Origin: a virus
Taxonomy: Duplodnaviria > Caudoviricetes
DNA length: 46,686 nucleotides
Strand: one strand, 5' to 3'
IMG/VR virus record: IMGVR_UViG_3300027697_000031
Coordinates: 1 to 46,686 of that record
Shown: one piece after another, positions 4,456 to 22,856 of the stretch
Numbering within the stretch: position 1 is the first letter of the stretch
How the letters are laid out: each line of letters begins with the position of its first letter
Notes under the pieces: generated by a model
The model's input: the letters and a program-made list of their open reading frames with translations, nothing else
Told to the model about the DNA's origin: nothing
The model's database searches: none
Made by a program: the position numbers and the translations under genes

Positions 4456-4637
4456 TAGTCAGCCTCTGGGCGTTTGTTGCCCTTCATCTCATGCACTTCC
4501 ATGATCTGTTTGATATTCATAGCGGGCATCTTAAACTCCATCTCGTAGAGTTCCATTGGTGCTGGTTTGCCAGCCAAGCCAGAAGTATCCATCTTGGGGT
4601 TGTCTGACAGAATCGTGAACTGTTTGCCTGACTTCAT
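4455..4637 (-). CDS. Hypothetical protein, 60 aa
   Basis: SD GGAGG; TAATG coupling to the portal start. Confidence 0.6.
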   Translation of the reverse strand: MKSGKQFTILSDNPKMDTSGLAGKPAPMELYEMEFKMPAMNIKQIMEVHEMKGNKRPEAD

Positions 4638-4678
4638 AGCGTTCCTCCGGTTGCCGCACTACTACATATTGTAGTGTG

Positions 4679-4707
4679 GTTATAGCAGCAAGTATACATG
4701 CTGTCAA
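4679..4707 (-). promoter_or_regulatory. Sigma70-type promoter for the portal-scaffold-capsid operon
   Basis: TTGACA (4707-4702), N17, TATAAC (4684-4679), with TG extension. Confidence 0.8.
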
Positions 4708-4708
4708 A

Positions 4709-4741
4709 GAAAAAAGAACCCCCTACGTTTCCGCAGGGGGC
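4709..4741 (-). terminator. Intrinsic terminator for terL and/or the putative sRNA
   Basis: GCCCCCTGCG-GAAA-CGTAGGGGGT then TCTTTTTT; two G-U wobbles form only on the minus strand. Confidence 0.85.
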
Positions 4742-4779
4742 AAGAGGCGTGAAGGAGAACGCCAAGGAGGTGAAACTGC
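4709..4779 (-). ncRNA. Putative ~70-nt small RNA carrying two anti-Shine-Dalgarno motifs
   Basis: Extended -10 TGTGaTATAGT (4795-4785); UCACCUCCUU; hairpin GGCGU-UCUCCUUC-ACGCC; terminator. Confidence 0.55.
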
Positions 4780-4799
4780 ATCCTACTATATCACACATT

Positions 4800-6188
4800 C
4801 TAAGTCCAGCCGACTGCCGAAATGGGCTTGATTTCCCGGCGTTCGTGTAAATGACCCCCCTCGCCAATACTAGCGATATGGAGCATGAGGTATTGTAGCG
4901 CCTCAGCCACATGGGAGTGTTTATTTTTCTCAATGTCGCCGTCGCCTTTGGGTTTATACCTATATCCACCCATCATGGCAGCCTTGAGTTGAGTGCAACT
5001 GGGGTCTACTAGGAAGGCCGGATCACCGTCTACTTGACGCATCAAGTAGTCATCGACCGAGTTAATCCGTGCCGAGATGCTGTTAGTCCTAGCGGGCATG
5101 ACCCTTAGCCCCTCCGCCTTAATGATGTCAACCGCCGATCTCTCATCTGTCTGCGCCCGCTGGATACCCGCAGGGTCAGTAACCACCAGTATAGGTGCGC
5201 CTCCAAACCGCTCGTATAGCAATGGCTTAAGCATTGTCCTGACAAAACGCTGTACTCCCATATCAAACGATACACACTCGCCAAGTATCAGCGCCCGACC
5301 ACGGGGGTCTTGTTGTCCGATAACAGCCGCTGGGGTAAGCCCCAAGTCCATCCCGATAACAATGGGTCGAACCCCATTGTTGATATAGCGAAGTCTCTCG
5401 CGAGCCATATGGTAGTCCGGCCTGAAATACTTATACACCGGCATACCAGCCGAGGACAGCCCGTACTCTCCATCGATGTAAACCCTAATATATTCTTCGC
5501 TTCGACCTTGGGTGTCGTAGTAACCTTCGGGGAGGTTCTCGATGTTCTCGGCGTACGCCGAGCGCCCGCTTGGCTGTTTGAATACCGCCCAACCATTATC
5601 GTTCGGAGATACGCCATCTTTAGGATCCAGCCCTTCCATCTGGTAATACCACCAAGTGTCCATTGTAGGTGGGTTAGTATCCCCCCACATCCCATGCCAT
5701 GTCGGCCCCCCGTCCTTTGCCGACGGGAAACGCCCAATACGCTTAGACATCGCATCCATAATGTCAGGGTGAATGTCCCGACACTCGTTAAACCACGCAA
5801 ATGTCAACTCCAACGAGTTCAAGTTAGCCACATCGTCAGCGTCATCTAGCGCTCGGAACATAATCTCGCACTCAACCTCGCCTACTTTGAAGAAATAGGT
5901 CTTGGTTGTACGCATATACTCCCCACAGACCCCCGGCGGGAACCAATCAAGGAAGGTTTTGATCGTAGTATCCTGCAACTGCCGTGCGGTTTCCCGCACA
6001 ATAGCCGCCCGCGTCTTGCGGATGCCCTGTGCATTGGGGGTTTGTAGGGATGCCCGCCTTACAATCTCGAACGAACAGGTCACGGACTTGCCAGAACCTA
6101 CCGGCCCCATCAAAACGCGCATTTTTGCGTCCGACTCCATGAACTTCGCCCCAGTTGGCGGGGGTGTGTAGTTAATATCGAGCGCCAT
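4800..6188 (-). CDS. terL: Terminase large subunit
   Basis: Walker A GPVGSGKS, Walker B variant WFNE, DTNPP motif, RNase H-like IGMDLG, DPAG and SHVAEALQY. Confidence 0.92.
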   Translation of the reverse strand: MALDINYTPPPTGAKFMESDAKMRVLMGPVGSGKSVTCSFEIVRRASLQTPNAQGIRKTRAAIVRETARQLQDTTIKTFLDWFPPGVCGEYMRTTKTYFFKVGEVECEIMFRALDDADDVANLNSLELTFAWFNECRDIHPDIMDAMSKRIGRFPSAKDGGPTWHGMWGDTNPPTMDTWWYYQMEGLDPKDGVSPNDNGWAVFKQPSGRSAYAENIENLPEGYYDTQGRSEEYIRVYIDGEYGLSSAGMPVYKYFRPDYHMARERLRYINNGVRPIVIGMDLGLTPAAVIGQQDPRGRALILGECVSFDMGVQRFVRTMLKPLLYERFGGAPILVVTDPAGIQRAQTDERSAVDIIKAEGLRVMPARTNSISARINSVDDYLMRQVDGDPAFLVDPSCTQLKAAMMGGYRYKPKGDGDIEKNKHSHVAEALQYLMLHIASIGEGGHLHERREIKPISAVGWT

Positions 6189-6388
6189 TAGTGGGTTTCC
6201 CCTACCACCATGACCACAAACTCACGGCCACGCTTCTTATGCTTGCTGATTTTGGTCTTAAACGAGGCTCCCGCCTCCTTTAACGCCAGTGTAAAGTTGT
6301 TGTACTCACTTGAAGTGGTAAAAATTGCTGCCTTGAACCCGTCGTAGGTGGAATTAAGCCTGTTCGCTATGCTCAATGGTAGTGACAT
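6188..6388 (-). CDS. Hypothetical protein (likely start MSLPLS...)
   Basis: SD AAGAGG before ATG at 6388; TAATG coupling to terL. Confidence 0.55.
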   Translation of the reverse strand: MSLPLSIANRLNSTYDGFKAAIFTTSSEYNNFTLALKEAGASFKTKISKHKKRGREFVVMVVGETH

Positions 6389-7162: not shown

Positions 7163-7471
7163 ATGATTAAATCTAATTTAATCGCACGTCCGACCCACGT
7201 ACGGGTTATCGTAGCCCCCAAAGCGGGATACCTCAAACTTGAGGGATGCAACGCCGATGCTTCAGGTACGGTGTTCCCAGTCGATCAGTCCAAGGAAGTT
7301 TACGCTTTCATGGTCAAGAAAGGCAAGGAACTCAAGAAAGAAGTCAAGGTTTGGATCCAGTCCGCTGGTGCAAAAACACCAGAGATCAAGTTTAACAAAT
7401 ACGACGGCCATCCTTACATGGCTCTAGTAGGCGACGATAAACCGAGCAAGACTGCGAAAGTAGTCCTGTAA
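7163..7471 (+). CDS. Early hypothetical protein, paralog A
   Basis: 102 aa; SD TAGGAG; clearly paralogous to 8462..8782. Confidence 0.8.
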   Translation: MIKSNLIARPTHVRVIVAPKAGYLKLEGCNADASGTVFPVDQSKEVYAFMVKKGKELKKEVKVWIQSAGAKTPEIKFNKYDGHPYMALVGDDKPSKTAKVVL

Positions 7472-7743: not shown

Positions 7744-7830
7744 ATGAATGAAAACTTCAAGATATTCCTGATAGCCCTAGCAGTCTGGCCTGTGCTGTAC
7801 CTACTGATGGTGCTAGTTCTATCCCTGTAA
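7744..7830 (+). CDS. 28-aa membrane peptide (MNENFKIFLIALAVWPVLYLLMVLVLSL)
   Basis: Read manually; SD GGAG; one hydrophobic helix. Confidence 0.55.
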   Translation: MNENFKIFLIALAVWPVLYLLMVLVLSL

Positions 7831-7949: not shown

Positions 7950-8305
7950 AACTATCTACACTATCTAAACTATACATCGGCCATATGACAGGATTTAGAT
8001 AGCGTAACTTGACAATGAAAATGTATAGTTTGCAGGAATACCAAGGGATTCCAGAGGTATATGTATAGTTTATCTATCTAACTATCTATATTATCTATCA
8101 TTTTATGCTACTGTTTGATTCCACATTTGGAAATGTACTTTACATGTAAAGTGCGGTATGATAATACATAAAATTGTAGTGCCTTATTATGCCGAAAAAC
8201 ATAGATAGTTTAGATAGTTGCATTATTCCCCAATCAAATCAATGGCTTACGCTATCCGTAAAGTTAGATAATGCATATATACTTTACATCTGACAGTAGA
8301 TAGTT
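7950..8305. repeat. AT-rich non-coding region with CTATCTA/TAGATAG repeats; candidate replication origin
   Basis: CTATCTA at 7952, 7961, 8074, 8082; TAGATAG at 7996, 8202, 8211, 8297; 16-bp palindrome ACTTTACATGTAAAGT at 8137-8152. Confidence 0.65.
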
Positions 8306-8355
8306 GTACCTACTGTTGCACCATCAACCTTACAGTCTTACTTTGAAGTGGCGGG

Positions 8356-8461: not shown

Positions 8462-8782
8462 ATGAAAAAACTCAAACCAACCCACATCAATGTCATCTTA
8501 CGCCCTAAAGCAGGTGATATAGCAATTGAGGGTACATACAACGCTGATGGTACGCCATCATCTGACGGTAAGTTTAGCGTTGATGATGCTAAGGGCATCT
8601 ATGCTTACATGGTGAAGAAGGGTAAGGAACTTGGTAAGGCTTTACATACTTGGTCACCCAAGGATAATGCCGGTAAGAACCCTGTTGTAAAGTTCAACAA
8701 GTATGACAATGCACCATACATTGCATTGGTCAACAACACCGAAGCATCACGCCAACCTTCAGCAGTCAAGGTTGTTCTTTAA
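8462..8782 (+). CDS. Early hypothetical protein, paralog B
   Basis: 106 aa; shares PTH..VI..PKAG, YAxMVKKGKEL, KFNKYD..PYxALV and terminal KVVL with 7163..7471. Confidence 0.8.
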   Translation: MKKLKPTHINVILRPKAGDIAIEGTYNADGTPSSDGKFSVDDAKGIYAYMVKKGKELGKALHTWSPKDNAGKNPVVKFNKYDNAPYIALVNNTEASRQPSAVKVVL

Positions 8783-9886: not shown

Positions 9887-10029
9887 TGCCCATGCCTTTA
9901 CATGAAGCGGCTCAGAACACGGCATGGTTCGTCATTATCGTGGTGGTGGGCATAGCCCTTGTGCTATGGCATGACTGCCGTAAGGAAACTAAGGAAGATC
10001 AACGCAAGAAGGAGAAAAAGCATGACTAA
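9886..10029 (+). CDS. 47-aa membrane protein
   Basis: Read manually; TM segment WFVIIVVVGIALVLW then a basic tail; TGATG coupling. Confidence 0.55.
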   Translation: MPMPLHEAAQNTAWFVIIVVVGIALVLWHDCRKETKEDQRKKEKKHD

Positions 10030-11514: not shown

Positions 11515-11540
11515 CCCATAACACAACATAAGGAGTGAAG

Positions 11541-12392
11541 ATGAACCTATCTGACCGCGCATTACTTGTGCAGTTGACCATATCCCAATGGACTGCACGG
11601 AAGTATGACAAGAAAGCAACGCAAGAAGTTGCTACGACTTTCAATACATCGAAAGATGCAGGGCGTTACAACAAGTCATTGCTACCTATGAATGACTACC
11701 TTGATCGGGTGCATAAGAAAACTACATTCATCCGTGAGAAGTTCTACAAGAACACTCTACCTTGGGGTATGGAAGGCACGATGATGTTGCCCACTACCAA
11801 TTACCTTGCGTTTATGAATGAGTTCCGTAAGGAAAAGAACGAGTGGTTGACCCTTGTCAATGACTTCAAGTCCAATTACTTGCAGTTGAAAGATGATGCA
11901 AAGCGAGTGCTTGGGCAGTTGTATGCCGATGCTGACTATCCTACGGAGAGTGAAGTAGGCAACAAGTTCAAGATCGACATGGCAGTATTTCCTGTGCCAT
12001 CGACAGACTTTAGATGTCAGATTGCCAGCGATGAATTGTCACGCATCCAACAAGATGTTGAGGCAAGAGTTGCTGATGCTCAGGCTACTGCGATGAAGGA
12101 AGTATGGACTCGGTTGTATGACAGAGTGAAACATATGGCAGAGAAACTTGCTGACCCTAAGTCTATCTTCAGAGATACCTTGGTGGAGAATCTGCAAGAG
12201 CAATGCGCCATGCTAACTCGTCTTAACTTTATGGATGATCCAAACCTTGAAGCCTTACGGCAACAAGTTGAGGGGACACTTGCATCACATCATCCTGATG
12301 CATTACGAAACGATCCTGACCTACGCCGTGATACTGCGGCTGAAGCGAAGGCAATCATGGACAAGATGTCCGTATTTATGGGAGGTCAATAA
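11541..12392 (+). CDS. DUF3150-like protein
   Basis: 283 aa, helical; TLPW..G...LP and Y...DYP....V..KF motifs; lies between the AAA and vWA genes. Confidence 0.6.
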   Translation: MNLSDRALLVQLTISQWTARKYDKKATQEVATTFNTSKDAGRYNKSLLPMNDYLDRVHKKTTFIREKFYKNTLPWGMEGTMMLPTTNYLAFMNEFRKEKNEWLTLVNDFKSNYLQLKDDAKRVLGQLYADADYPTESEVGNKFKIDMAVFPVPSTDFRCQIASDELSRIQQDVEARVADAQATAMKEVWTRLYDRVKHMAEKLADPKSIFRDTLVENLQEQCAMLTRLNFMDDPNLEALRQQVEGTLASHHPDALRNDPDLRRDTAAEAKAIMDKMSVFMGGQ

Positions 12393-16473: not shown

Positions 16474-16837
16474 AGCAGAAAAGATTCGCCAGTTCTTAAA
16501 GGCTAACCCTACCGCTACACCAAAAGAGATTGCCACGAAGTTCAAGGTCAATGTCACGATGGTGTATGCGCTACGCAAGAAAGCCTTGATCCCTATGGCT
16601 CACGCTGTGAGCCACCCCTCGTCAGCCAACCAACAACAAGTTGGTGGATCTCACTACAAAGCAATGCCGATCCAACCTTGGGAAGCCATGCAAGCATGGA
16701 TGAAACCCGATGAGTTCAATGGATTCTTAAAGGGCAACGCAATCAAATATCTTGCTAGGTGTAATGCAAAGGGGGGCCTCGAAGATGTGAAGAAAGCCCA
16801 TCACTACATCGCCAAACTAATTGAGGTGAGCAAATGA
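16454..16837 (+). CDS. DUF3310 (SaV-like) protein with an N-terminal HTH-like extension
   Basis: QVGGSHY...IQPWE...FLKGNAIKYLAR...KGGLEDVKKA. Confidence 0.8.
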   Translation: MRKKTSKAEKIRQFLKANPTATPKEIATKFKVNVTMVYALRKKALIPMAHAVSHPSSANQQQVGGSHYKAMPIQPWEAMQAWMKPDEFNGFLKGNAIKYLARCNAKGGLEDVKKAHHYIAKLIEVSK

Positions 16838-16944
16838 TGGAGATTCTATGGGAGATATTCAAGTGGACTATGTTCCTACTTGGTTGCGTGACTGCGCTAG
16901 GTGCGTTAGCCACACTCGTATTCATATGGTTGCAAGATAGGTAA
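16834..16944 (+). CDS. 36-aa membrane peptide
   Basis: Read manually; SD GAGG; ATGA coupling; hydrophobic helix. Confidence 0.5.
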   Translation: MMEILWEIFKWTMFLLGCVTALGALATLVFIWLQDR

Positions 16945-19566: not shown

Positions 19567-19594
19567 TTGACAAGAGCGTAAAGTGAGTTACAAT
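19567..19594 (+). promoter_or_regulatory. Possible sigma70 promoter overlapping the VRR-NUC start
   Basis: TTGACA, N16, TACAAT. Confidence 0.45.
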
Positions 19595-19891
19595 ACTCCC
19601 GAAGGCAAGGTAAAGAAGAAGGTAGTGACCGTATTGAAGAAGCATGGTGTGTGGTATTTCTTCCCTGCTAACAATGGCTTTGGCAAGGCGGGGATACCTG
19701 ACCTGATAGCGATTGTGAGGGGACAGTTTTTAGGGATTGAAGTCAAGGCAGACAAGACCAAGAAGCCGACGATGTTGCAAGTGAAGTGTGGTCAAGAGAT
19801 TCAAAACGCAGGTGGTTGGTGGATGGTGGTGTATGACGAGCCAACCCTTGCGTTGATGGAACAAATAATAAAAGAAAAACTTTACAGGTGA
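19583..19891 (+). CDS. VRR-NUC nuclease (Holliday junction resolvase-like)
   Basis: TPEGKVK, GIPDLI, FLGIEVKA, PTMLQ and AGG motifs. Confidence 0.88.
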   Translation: MSYNTPEGKVKKKVVTVLKKHGVWYFFPANNGFGKAGIPDLIAIVRGQFLGIEVKADKTKKPTMLQVKCGQEIQNAGGWWMVVYDEPTLALMEQIIKEKLYR

Positions 19892-19898
19892 AAAGATA

Positions 19899-21449
19899 AT
19901 GCTAGTAGTTCAAGATGCCAAAGCGTTGGCATTAAAACTCAACAACCCGAACAGGGTACTTGAGACGATACCAACCGCCAAGCCGTTTGAGTATCAAGGC
20001 GTACCCCTTGTGGTTACACCCCATCGTCTTGATGAGGTACGGGTATTGCGTAACCTTGGTATTCAAGCACCATCCCCCATTCTGTATTACTACGACTGGC
20101 CCGGCCAGTACACCCCGTATGACCACCAAAAACAAACTGCTGCGTTCTTGACGCTCAACACTCGTGGGCTTGTATTGAATGAGATCGGTACAGGCAAAAC
20201 CCAATCAGCATTATGGGCGGCTGACTATCTTATAAAGACAGGGCAGATTGAAAAGGTATTGATTCTTTCACCGCTATCTACGCTTGAACGGGTGTGGGGT
20301 GATGGTATCTTTACAGGCTTTCCACACCGCAAGTTCTTGGTGTTACATGGCACTGCCGCCAAACGCAAGCAGTTGCTCAGAGAAGAAGCAGACTTCTACA
20401 TCATCAACCATGATGGCTTCCCGATCATATCTGACCAAGCATTAGGGATGTTCGACCTAGTGATCGTAGACGAAGCGGCAGTTCTGCGTAACCCATCGAC
20501 ACAACGATTCAAGATATTCCGTAAATGGGTAGACATGAATCCATCAATACGTTTGTGGTTGATGACTGGCACACCTACCCCGAATGATCCAACCGATGCA
20601 TGGGCGTTGGCTAAATTAGTTAACAGTCCGTACTGTACAAAAACATATACTGCTTTCCGTGAGCAGGTGATGATGAAGATTGGGCAATGGAATTTTGTAC
20701 CACGACCTGAGTCGGTGGACATTGTTAAGAACATACTGCAACCTGCGGTACGGTATACCCGTGATGAATGTTTTGACCTACCCGATACGGTAGTGCAGAC
20801 ACGGCAGGTGGATTTGACCCCGATACAGAAGAAGCATTACACCCAAATGCTCAAGCACTTTGTTTCGGAGGCAACCGAAGGAACTATTACTGCGGTCAAT
20901 GAAGCAGTAAAGATTCAGAAACTTGTACAGATTTGTTGTGGCGTTGCTTACGGTGACGACGGGCAGAACATACAAGTTGATGCAACCCCAAGAGTTAACT
21001 TAGTTAAGGAGGTAATCGAAGAAGCAGGGGAGAAAGTAATTGTATTCGTACCGCTGACAGGTACTCTGCATATGTTGGAGCAAGAACTTGGTAAGCATTG
21101 GACAGTTGGTGTCGTGAATGGCGAAGTATCCGCACATAAACGAAATCAAATTTTCCATGACTTCCAACATTCTAAACACCCACATGTGTTGATTGCCCAC
21201 CCCGGCACAATGGCGCATGGCTTGACGCTGACAACGGCATCAACGATTGTGTGGTACGGCCCGATCAATAGCAATGAACAATACACACAAGCAAATGGTC
21301 GGATAGAACGCATTGGTAAGAAGCATGTATCCAATGTGATTCACATTGAAGCAACCGATCTTGAGCATAAGATTTATCAAAGGCTCAGGAACAAACAGAA
21401 GTTGCAGGGTTTGTTATTGGATTTAATTCAACAAGAAACTGAGAGGTGA
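19899..21449 (+). CDS. SNF2-family superfamily 2 helicase
   Basis: GTGKT, DEAA, TGTP, HGLTLT and QANGRIERIG. Confidence 0.92.
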   Translation: MLVVQDAKALALKLNNPNRVLETIPTAKPFEYQGVPLVVTPHRLDEVRVLRNLGIQAPSPILYYYDWPGQYTPYDHQKQTAAFLTLNTRGLVLNEIGTGKTQSALWAADYLIKTGQIEKVLILSPLSTLERVWGDGIFTGFPHRKFLVLHGTAAKRKQLLREEADFYIINHDGFPIISDQALGMFDLVIVDEAAVLRNPSTQRFKIFRKWVDMNPSIRLWLMTGTPTPNDPTDAWALAKLVNSPYCTKTYTAFREQVMMKIGQWNFVPRPESVDIVKNILQPAVRYTRDECFDLPDTVVQTRQVDLTPIQKKHYTQMLKHFVSEATEGTITAVNEAVKIQKLVQICCGVAYGDDGQNIQVDATPRVNLVKEVIEEAGEKVIVFVPLTGTLHMLEQELGKHWTVGVVNGEVSAHKRNQIFHDFQHSKHPHVLIAHPGTMAHGLTLTTASTIVWYGPINSNEQYTQANGRIERIGKKHVSNVIHIEATDLEHKIYQRLRNKQKLQGLLLDLIQQETER

Positions 21450-21451
21450 TT

Positions 21452-21856
21452 ATGAGTATAACTGTCGATGATGTTGTTGCGGCGTATCTCAAACTCCGCA
21501 ATAAGAAGGAAGCCCTAGAAGCCGAGACGAAGGATCAAGTCAAGACTTTGAAGGAAAAGATGGAGCAGTTTGAAGCATGGATCAAGGAACAGGCTGACGC
21601 TCAAGGCGTTACCAGTTTCAAAACCAAGCATGGAACTGCGTTCTTAACCACGACGGACTATGCGAATGTCGGTGATTGGGATGCCGTACTTGGATTCATT
21701 CGTGAGAACGAAGCCTACGACATGCTTGAGAAACGCATTAGCAAAGTTGCAGTCCGTGGATATATAGATGCAACCAAAGCAGTACCCCCCGGCGTGAACT
21801 ACGGCACGAAGTTGGAGGTGAATATCCGTAAGCCCGTAGCCCGTGTTGAAGACTAA
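21452..21856 (+). CDS. Replication-module hypothetical protein
   Basis: SD GAGG; coiled coil followed by DW..V..FI and PPGV motifs. Confidence 0.7.
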   Translation: MSITVDDVVAAYLKLRNKKEALEAETKDQVKTLKEKMEQFEAWIKEQADAQGVTSFKTKHGTAFLTTTDYANVGDWDAVLGFIRENEAYDMLEKRISKVAVRGYIDATKAVPPGVNYGTKLEVNIRKPVARVED

Positions 21857-21878
21857 CCGCTCACTAAAGGAGAAAACC

Positions 21879-22856
21879 ATGAGCAATCTTGTACCTGTAA
21901 ATATCCAAGTCCCCGCACACTTGGCAAGCCGTATCGGCACACCATCATTACTTGCACAGTCAATGGCAGGTGGTCTTGGTAATGGTGGCGAATCCATCCC
22001 ACGCATCAGTATTAAAGGCGGGCGTTTCCGTATTGTCGAGGGTGATACCGAGACTGTATTGGACACCACAACCATTGATGTAGTAATCGTTGGTGCAAAT
22101 CCTCGTCTGTCAAAGACTTGGTATGCAAAGGCATGGACACCTGACTCTGAACCACAAGCACCCGACTGCTTCTCATTGGATGGTATCGGCCCTGATCCGT
22201 CAGCCACACAACCACAAAATGACCTGTGTGCGTCTTGCCCACAGAACGCTTGGGGTAGCAAAGTGACTCCACAAGGTCAGCAGATCAAAGCCTGTGCCGA
22301 TCAGAAGCGTCTTGCCGTGGTGTCTGCTGATGACCCGACAGGCCCTACCTACTTGTTGCAGGTTACACCTGCCGCATTGAAAGGTCTGAACCAGTACCAA
22401 AAAGAACTTGCCATGCGTGGCATTGCCCCTGAGATTGTGCGTACCCGTATCTCGTTTGATACTGATGCGTCGTTCCCCAAACTGAAGTTCGGCTTTGGTG
22501 GATTCAATGAGGCTGATGTTCAGGCGGCAGTTGATCCTTTGTTTGGCTCAGCATCTGTCAAGGAAATTACTGGTGAGAATCCAAGGGCTGCTGTTGCAGT
22601 GCCGCAGATTGCCTCACCACAACAAGTTGCACCGAAACCCGCATTGAAGGCGGTAGAATCCACCCCCGCCCCTGCTCCTGTTGCGGAACAACCTGCTCCT
22701 TTGAAGCGTGGTTTTGGTGCATCCAAACCTGCTACTCCTGTAAAGGCGGCTACCCCTAAACCTGCCGTTGCACCTGCCGCAACCGCTACAAGTGCGGCGG
22801 CTTTAGCGGATAGCATTGCGGCTCTTGTCGGAGAGGTAAACTCTGATGATGCCTAA
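21879..22856 (+). CDS. Probable single-stranded DNA binding protein
   Basis: RISIKGGRF, CASCPQN..GS, KAC...RLAV; Ala/Pro-rich tail with an acidic end; SD AAGGAG. Confidence 0.6.
   Translation: MSNLVPVNIQVPAHLASRIGTPSLLAQSMAGGLGNGGESIPRISIKGGRFRIVEGDTETVLDTTTIDVVIVGANPRLSKTWYAKAWTPDSEPQAPDCFSLDGIGPDPSATQPQNDLCASCPQNAWGSKVTPQGQQIKACADQKRLAVVSADDPTGPTYLLQVTPAALKGLNQYQKELAMRGIAPEIVRTRISFDTDASFPKLKFGFGGFNEADVQAAVDPLFGSASVKEITGENPRAAVAVPQIASPQQVAPKPALKAVESTPAPAPVAEQPAPLKRGFGASKPATPVKAATPKPAVAPAATATSAAALADSIAALVGEVNSDDA

Follow-up and report, generated by a model that had tools for sequence, protein, structure and literature searches.

The closest described counterparts of the element reported here are small RNAs (sRNAs) of Betaproteobacteria. 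The toxic or double-hairpin sRNAs of family RF02278 are represented in Burkholderia by ncS03, ncS05, ncS27 and ncS62, according to the available part of PMC5688073. Blocking of ribosome-binding sites (RBSs) is reported as shown in the available parts of the sources on Neisseria NmsR (PMC5362039) and on Bordetella pertussis S17S (bioRxiv 10.1101/2024.11.19.624354), the latter also showing Hfq dependence and direct repression. Among the phage-encoded sRNAs covered in the available part of a review (PMC12197685), none represses the replication operon of its own phage in trans. Additionally, a literature search conducted mostly outside subscription journals returned neither an RF02278-like RNA borne by a phage nor a phage sRNA that represses the helicase of its own phage in trans. 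Four seed strings were looked for in six supplementary files of a survey of structured RNAs in phages (PMC10690425) and occurred in none of them; because the check covered these six files only, the motif may be catalogued in that survey without a function.

Here, we describe a putative sRNA gene located next to the terminase large subunit gene (terL) of a phage. What is new, as judged by sequence comparison, is that its exposed seeds co-vary by lineage with the RBSs of the phage's own SNF2-type helicase gene and of the next two genes, 15 kb away. The most likely explanation, to which we assign a probability of about 0.7, is that a trans-acting sRNA of ~70 nt pairs, as predicted, through these C/U-rich seeds over the three RBSs and lowers their translation.

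The window, meaning the whole stretch of DNA that was analyzed, comprises the 46,686 bases of a linear virus record with a completeness of 85%. Its packaging and structural arm lies on the minus strand and its replication arm on the plus strand. No integrase or repressor was found among the 49 window ORFs or among 88 ORFs without a window homologue in six near-complete relatives, and the phage is therefore probably lytic. No cultured phage matched the window at the nucleotide level; the closest cultured phages are distant (the Rhizobium RHph_TM group and Pseudomonas Rollin and KPP25), and the space 3' of terL is just 9-16 nt in the two cultured relatives inspected. Uncultured relatives were found as 602 stretches in the scanned part of IMG/VR, of which the best 80 were kept. 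At E 1e-50, 3095 of 8000 scored sequences were terL relatives, indicating an abundant freshwater phage family, and the RNA runs holding the region are freshwater samples. Related contigs occur in eight MAGs of mixed phyla, two of them labelled Burkholderiales. Several further features of the genome plan were observed. An AT-rich non-coding stretch between the two arms (7950-8310) carries repeated CTATCTA / TAGATAG and is a possible origin or terminal region, and the early genes 7163-7471 and 8462-8782 (plus strand) are paralogues with 49% identity. A 36-aa membrane peptide is encoded at 16834-16944 (plus strand) just 5' of the DNA polymerase gene, with hydrophobic ORFs of similar size in most of 10 relatives. 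A 28-aa hydrophobic ORF at 7744-7830 (plus strand) with a GGAGA RBS has 27-31 aa look-alikes in 5 of 10 relatives and is a possible exclusion or membrane peptide.

Table 1. Features of the putative sRNA locus and of its predicted targets in the window
Feature	Position	Strand	Remarks
Predicted sRNA	4706..4779	minus	~70-74 nt; from sequence and fold
Extended -10, TGTG-a-TATAGT	4785..4795	minus	predicted +1 at 4779-4777; from sequence
Second possible promoter	TGGACT 4808-4803 / 17 nt / TAGGAT 4785-4780	minus	from sequence
Seed 1, single-stranded GUUUCACCUCCUU	4764..4776	minus	main clade: GUUGUCACCUC
Hairpin GGCGU/ACGCC with seed 2 UCUCCUUC in the loop	4746..4763	minus	stem letters vary by lineage, pairing kept
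Intrinsic terminator	4706..4741	minus	GAAA-capped stem 4741-4718 and U tract to about 4706
Separate downstream promoter, TTGACA-17-TATAAC	4679..4707	minus	serves a 60-aa ORF and portal; from sequence
terL	4800..6188	minus	462 aa; PHROG terminase large subunit; stop TAG 4802-4800
Near-consensus sigma-70 promoter (11/12)	19567..19594	plus	heads the endonuclease-helicase operon; TTGAC upstream in most relatives
Predicted target: RBS AGGUGAAA of SNF2-type helicase gene 19899-21449	19886..19893	plus	8 bp with seed 1
Predicted target: RBS GAGGUGA of 134-aa gene 21452-21856	21443..21449	plus	weak Pam3 gp33-like match
Predicted target: RBS AAGGAGAA of 325-aa gene 21879-22856	21867..21874	plus	pairs with seed 2; weaker signal
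Possible target: RBS of 283-aa gene 11541-12392	11530..11535	plus	DUF3150-like lead; weakest signal

The original prediction had proposed a minus-strand sRNA gene consisting of an extended -10, an unpaired stretch, a hairpin and a GAAA terminator, and all of these parts were recovered in their places by sequence and folding (Table 1). In the fold of 4783-4706, UCACCUCCUU at 4773-4764 (minus strand) is unpaired. A simple promoter scan does not list the sRNA promoter of the window, where a good -35 is missing. The separate downstream promoter shows two features of its own. Its spacer contains a GTATAC palindrome with variable inverted arms (59 of 128 relatives have GTATAC downstream), and the last T of its -10 is frequently missing, making it a possible site for a phage late regulator.

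For the comparison with relatives, whose loci carry L numbers, 53 distinct elements with a terminator were taken from loci picked by terL alone (L001-L080 and L124-L131); L047, which is cut, L125 and L129, which lack a terminator, and L127 and L130, in which the pattern for the terL end was not matched, were left out. A hairpin just before the terminator was present in 44 of the 53, a C/U loop in 36 and, together with an upstream C/U motif, all parts in 34. The corresponding means in 100 shuffles were 6.2, 1.3 and 0.4 (maximum 2 for the last, all parts together), so the layout occurs more often than by chance. The stems differ wholesale among lineages with pairing retained by compensation. In a model-fitted alignment of 41 rows (40 phage, 1 host), a kind of alignment that leans to its model, two-sided changes were seen at all six pairs of the inner helix. 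Because the stems are out of register in a plain MAFFT alignment, RNAalifold did not recover the inner hairpin from it. A motif scan matched 31 stretches, 30 of which lie immediately 3' of terL. In a wider set of 237 loci from three terL searches, amounting to 128 distinct relatives, our own classifier assigned a terminator with C/U motif to 101, a terminator only to 13 and neither to 14, and by eye L417 and L448 may hold an element that it missed. A C/U motif, the putative anti-Shine-Dalgarno (anti-SD) sequence, precedes 101 of 114 post-terL terminators versus 9 of 44 terminators at other gene ends. Each phage record searched held one strong copy.

Two parts of the original prediction held only partially. 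The 10-mer proposed as a mimic of the 16S rRNA 3' tail does equal the 16S rRNA 3' end of a Burkholderiaceae genome, which may not be that of the host, but strict mimicry is not a property of the family, since the full 10-nt match is found in 3 of 53 distinct elements and an 8-nt match in 18. The assignment of the strand by G-U wobbles agrees with the folding z-scores in the window (-3.7 for the minus versus -2.2 for the plus strand), but across relatives folding energy by itself does not settle the strand (25 of 53; G-U pairs 66 versus 35). UUGUC occurs in 34 of the 53 elements, 31 times as UUGUCACC, and the window reads UUUCACC, compared to the 5' UGUCUCC motif of RF02278.

In most relatives, the last codons of terL together with its TGA stop contain the -35 and the extended -10 of the sRNA promoter. 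All 40 of the TGA-stop elements continue with TAnnnT, which completes the extended -10, and 35 of the 40 have TTG at the -35 with a 17-nt spacer. The Val codons at that -35 are GTT in 36 of 37 cases versus 22% elsewhere in terL. None of 121 other TGA stops is followed by TAnnnT, and TAnnnT at the stop was seen in 0 of 14 elements without a terminator versus 62 of 101 with the RNA, counts that are not independent of descent. The window lineage has a TAG stop and the shifted TGTG-a-TATAGT instead of TTG-17-TGA-TAnnnT. In the L053 clade, no clear promoter was recognized at the stop, and the RNA may therefore be cut from terL mRNA there. With the exception of this clade, the element has the make-up of a trans-encoded RBS-blocking sRNA, i.e. 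a non-coding unit with its own promoter and terminator. On these comparative grounds, the putative sRNA gene is a real, conserved phage element of a known class.

Pairing with targets was scored as the best contiguous helix plus RNA accessibility, with the RNA of each phage set against the RBS of each phage and own combinations compared to swapped ones. The first set comprised 11 genomes and 28 gene families, and added genomes were fetched afterwards, one per cluster, with permutation p values. The first set ranked highest the 134-aa gene at 21452 (p 0.001), the helicase (0.006) and the 283-aa gene at 11541 (0.011), the effect of the next-ranked family being one third the size; just the gene at 21452 survives correction for 28 tests, and the 325-aa gene at 21879 gave p 0.38. 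With the added genomes, p was 0.0005 for the helicase (35 genomes in 15 clusters), 0.0015 for the 134-aa gene and 0.004 for the 325-aa gene. These values are optimistic, since some lineages are represented in both sets and the clusters are not a tree-based correction. The 283-aa gene gave p 0.009 (maximum 0.09) in a set of added genomes without the window and L061 RNAs. Five informative control genes (exonuclease, terL, portal, the 60-aa ORF and the gene at 6354) gave p 0.14-0.77 in the added genomes. The endonuclease (p 0.94) is a weak control because its upstream region is mostly promoter. When the RNAs with the commonest seed were dropped, p was 0.002 for the helicase, 0.0005 for the 134-aa gene and 0.002 for the 325-aa gene.

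Inspection of individual helices points in the same direction. Helices of at least 7 bp join the RNA to the helicase RBS in 39 of 46 genomes, compared to 13 of 46 for the exonuclease and 8 of 40 for terL, and the longest helices with the helicase RBS comprise one of 14 bp and several of 10 bp. In the main clade, seed GUUGUCACCU pairs with AGGUGACAAC, AGGUGACGAC or AGGUGAUGAC, in some cases via G-U. In the window, seed UUUCACCU faces the helicase RBS AGGUGAAA; the corresponding partners are CUUCGCCC and GGGUGAAG in L056 and CUUGUCUC and GAGACAAG in L209. The 14-bp helix, in L480, extends across the Shine-Dalgarno (SD) motif and the start codon. In L336 and L342, the linker contributes a 10-bp helix; it lies upstream of an SD with which the loop could pair as well. 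A GGUG(A/G) SD combined with a UCACC-type seed is present in 28 genomes, and in 27 of these the first base past the SD core is paired: it is C or U opposite a G of the RNA (23) and A opposite a U (4, from two separate terL lineages). Bases past the SD core are not dictated by 16S pairing. Seed pairing with a distant target is thus kept by compensatory change, a feature of the trans-encoded RBS-blocking sRNA class. Pairing with the helicase RBS is poor in L199, L213, L397, L064/L068, L401, L454 and L077, of which L397 pairs over 9 bp with the next gene.

These results narrow the range of targets that had been proposed. The complementary RBS motifs named in the original prediction exist at 10008, 14131, 21867, 7152 and 16249, the 23-aa ORF starting at 10022. 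The idea of an RBS-blocking RNA stands insofar as early replication-arm genes are the predicted targets and the RBS at 21867 is among those that co-vary, but broad silencing does not, as 3 of 28 families stood out and a cruder genome-wide top-decile test of own versus swapped pairs was null (p 0.52; starts and sites are approximate in this test, and non-targets enter its average). In the window, the helicase site ranks 7th of 42 RBSs by the helix score (-8.7 kcal/mol), and it does not stand out by plain duplex folding either. The preference for early over late RBSs is small and parallels plain SD strength. Enrichment of GGAGA in early genes is marginal (p 0.049; 0.23 at the family level), and that of GGTGA is not significant (0.10 at the family level). 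Some observations on the target operon itself may also be mentioned. In most relatives, the -10 of the promoter at 19567-19600 adjoins or overlaps the endonuclease start as called, which hints at a leaderless message or else a later start, and no solved structure matches the 325-aa target. The helicase match falls in two pieces in L328 (G288:448-2979), with a ~330-codon in-frame insertion that is a possible intein, and is split in L039 (G271:27489-28913).

As to similarity to known families, nothing reached the Rfam cut-off in the window or in the loci of 20 relatives; the sub-threshold matches were all to anti-SD sRNAs (suhB, anti-hemB, NmsRb and RF02278), apart from a weak ClpQY-promoter match on the terminator. 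RF02278 scored 12.6 bits in the window and 30.3, 27.7 and 29.9 bits in relatives, the gathering cut-off of 50 not being reached, and in two of three phage records its only match was the sRNA element (30.3 and 27.7 bits). The traits of RF02278, i.e. two hairpins, two unpaired C/U-rich stretches and a U tract at the end, are present. R1, a covariance model built from 14 phage elements only, has the sRNA element as its single strong match in the window. The R1 and RF02278 models recognize each other, and the host RNAs show their parts in the same order as the phage element. The suggestion of a wholly undescribed class is not supported, the architecture being that of RF02278, NmsR and S17S. Other RNAs were also noticed. 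The distant lineages L326, L342, L396 and L400 carry another anti-SD RNA with a CUCCUCCC loop, resembling anti-hemB (RF02837) or ar14/cuckoo (RF02344), in the same post-terL slot; in 20 such distant loci, all 14 Rfam matches fell on the CUCCUCCC slot with at most 34 bits versus cut-offs of 49.5 and 58.8. Seven unrelated viral records that are chance pattern matches (L133, L147, L156, L187, L221, L227 and L238) combine, in AT-rich sequence, a hairpin and a terminator with a promoter-like site, possibly another small RNA.

This kinship raises the question of whether the phage simply carries a captured host-type anti-SD sRNA, which would mainly repress host transporter or metabolic mRNAs or compete for Hfq, with phage RBS pairing being secondary. 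R1 matched 31 of 101 Burkholderiaceae genomes versus 5 of 101 Alteromonadaceae genomes. One unpublished genome (G086), on which alone no conclusion rests, is part of the host-site tallies given below and probably of this Burkholderiaceae sample. Among the best 20 of 30 fetched host loci, 9 were RF02278 above and 4 below the cut-off, 3 were anti-hemB and 4 belonged to no family. Members of the host family are predicted or shown to repress transporter and metabolic genes in the available parts of PMC5688073 and bioRxiv 10.1101/2024.11.19.624354. However, the phage seeds differ from the host seed and among lineages and track phage RBSs, and the main phage seed has perfect host sites before an ATG in 50 of 151 genomes versus 128 of 151 for the host seed. 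The host target search in these 151 genomes gave no single recurring gene family. We consider it unlikely that host mRNAs are the main targets; the two roles can coexist.

A structured terL 3' UTR, or a portal leader or attenuator whose anti-SD masks the next RBS in read-through transcripts, seems quite unlikely. Such a cis element would fit the fold of 4783-4640, which pairs CCUCC with the GGAGG of the 60-aa ORF, as well as the L053 clade with its lack of a clear promoter and the RNA contigs that cross the terminator. Contig X3 covers 4615-4779, its end coinciding with the predicted start, and X1 covers 4651-4789; both run through the terminator rather than showing a discrete transcript, have a depth of 2-4, are available as assembled contigs only and may reflect DNA carry-over, and as a sign of expression they are at most a weak hint. 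Longer contigs place the phage in the same RNA runs. The small-share RNA runs X4-X6 are without the element and 4790-5018 is without a contig, which carries no weight. Against a cis role, the seeds do not co-vary with the RBS of the 60-aa ORF (p 0.41), portal (0.19) or terL (0.14), and the downstream genes have their own promoter. Co-variation with sites 15 kb away requires a trans-acting RNA. Finally, it is highly improbable that the locus is a simple terminator flanked by pyrimidine-rich sequence, a type I antitoxin directed against the 23-aa membrane peptide or a CsrA/RsmA sponge made from the plus strand, the last two having been raised in the original prediction: any anti-SD pairs with any SD, the RBS of the 23-aa ORF is complementary over 9 nt and the plus-strand loop reads GAAGGAGA, but these readings are largely refuted by the shuffles, the promoter codon bias and the comparison of own with swapped pairing, the 23-aa ORF lies 5 kb away with no similar peptide among the SD-led hydrophobic ORFs of the 10 relatives scanned, and the minus strand carries the promoter, the U tract and the conserved signals, with neither a promoter nor a terminator for the plus strand around the element.

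Returning to the preferred explanation, a trans-acting sRNA that lowers translation of the helicase operon, the RNA would be transcribed by host sigma-70 polymerase from the terL-stop promoter or, in lineages without this promoter, be cut from the 3' end of terL mRNA. Pairing of an sRNA over the SD-to-AUG stretch blocks 30S entry, and the phage RNA would cover this stretch and prevent 30S loading on its predicted targets, the SNF2-type helicase gene and two unnamed neighbors in one operon. Hfq probably helps, terminal U tracts being linked to Hfq in the available part of PMC5362039. The sRNA would accumulate as genome copies and terL transcripts rise and, its level following genome number and terL transcription, would thus put a brake on replication proteins as packaging begins, acting either early as a ceiling or late as a shut-off. 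More tentatively, a lytic lineage may have taken over a host anti-SD sRNA, written its promoter into the last codons of terL and co-evolved the seeds with the RBSs of its own helicase operon; the resulting gene-dosage feedback would cap replication, time the packaging switch and perhaps prevent related phages that arrive later from replicating. Transcription is generally seen as the main means by which lytic phages time their development. If true, the proposed mechanism would mean that an abundant family of freshwater phages also controls the step from replication to packaging at the level of RNA. To our knowledge, natural compensatory changes between the seed of a trans-acting sRNA and a distant RBS are seldom visible. 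Here, such changes name targets and provide allele-swap tests, and they suggest a route to the targets of other anti-SD RNAs near terminase genes.

Compared to known systems, as described in the available parts of the respective sources, the phage element would share with phage sRNAs VpdS, PreS, 24B_1, sar, OOP and aQ (PMC12197685) the tuning of phage development by base pairing, whereas these sRNAs come mostly from temperate phages and are cis-antisense or aimed at host genes or lysogeny control. Like Neisseria NmsR A/B (RF02877; PMC5362039), it has one anti-SD between two stem-loops and another in the second loop, and many phage relatives have an extra, NmsR-like 5' hairpin; unlike the single phage copy, NmsR A/B are tandem siblings that regulate TCA-cycle genes, and RF02877 scores 19.4 bits in the window versus a cut-off of 52. 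S17S (bioRxiv 10.1101/2024.11.19.624354) is similar in its 67 nt and two single-stranded RBS-complementary sites and is processed from a longer RNA, a route that the phage clade without a promoter may share, but it is chromosomal and its 27-nt seed region is invariant across species. The RF02278 RNAs of Burkholderia (PMC5688073) are closest in design, with ~60-70 nt, a 5' UGUC-led C/U single strand, a C/U-loop hairpin, a short U-rich linker, a terminator, predicted pairing over RBSs and reciprocal model matches. In contrast, the phage copies score 12.6-30.3 bits versus the cut-off of 50, their seeds differ by lineage, they occur singly beside terL and their predicted targets are phage replication genes rather than host metabolism. 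The phage RNA would thus work like RF02278, NmsR and S17S and is a non-member by the Rfam cut-off. Common descent with RF02278-type RNAs is plausible, and the element is probably either a descendant of the betaproteobacterial double-hairpin sRNAs or a product of convergence on them.
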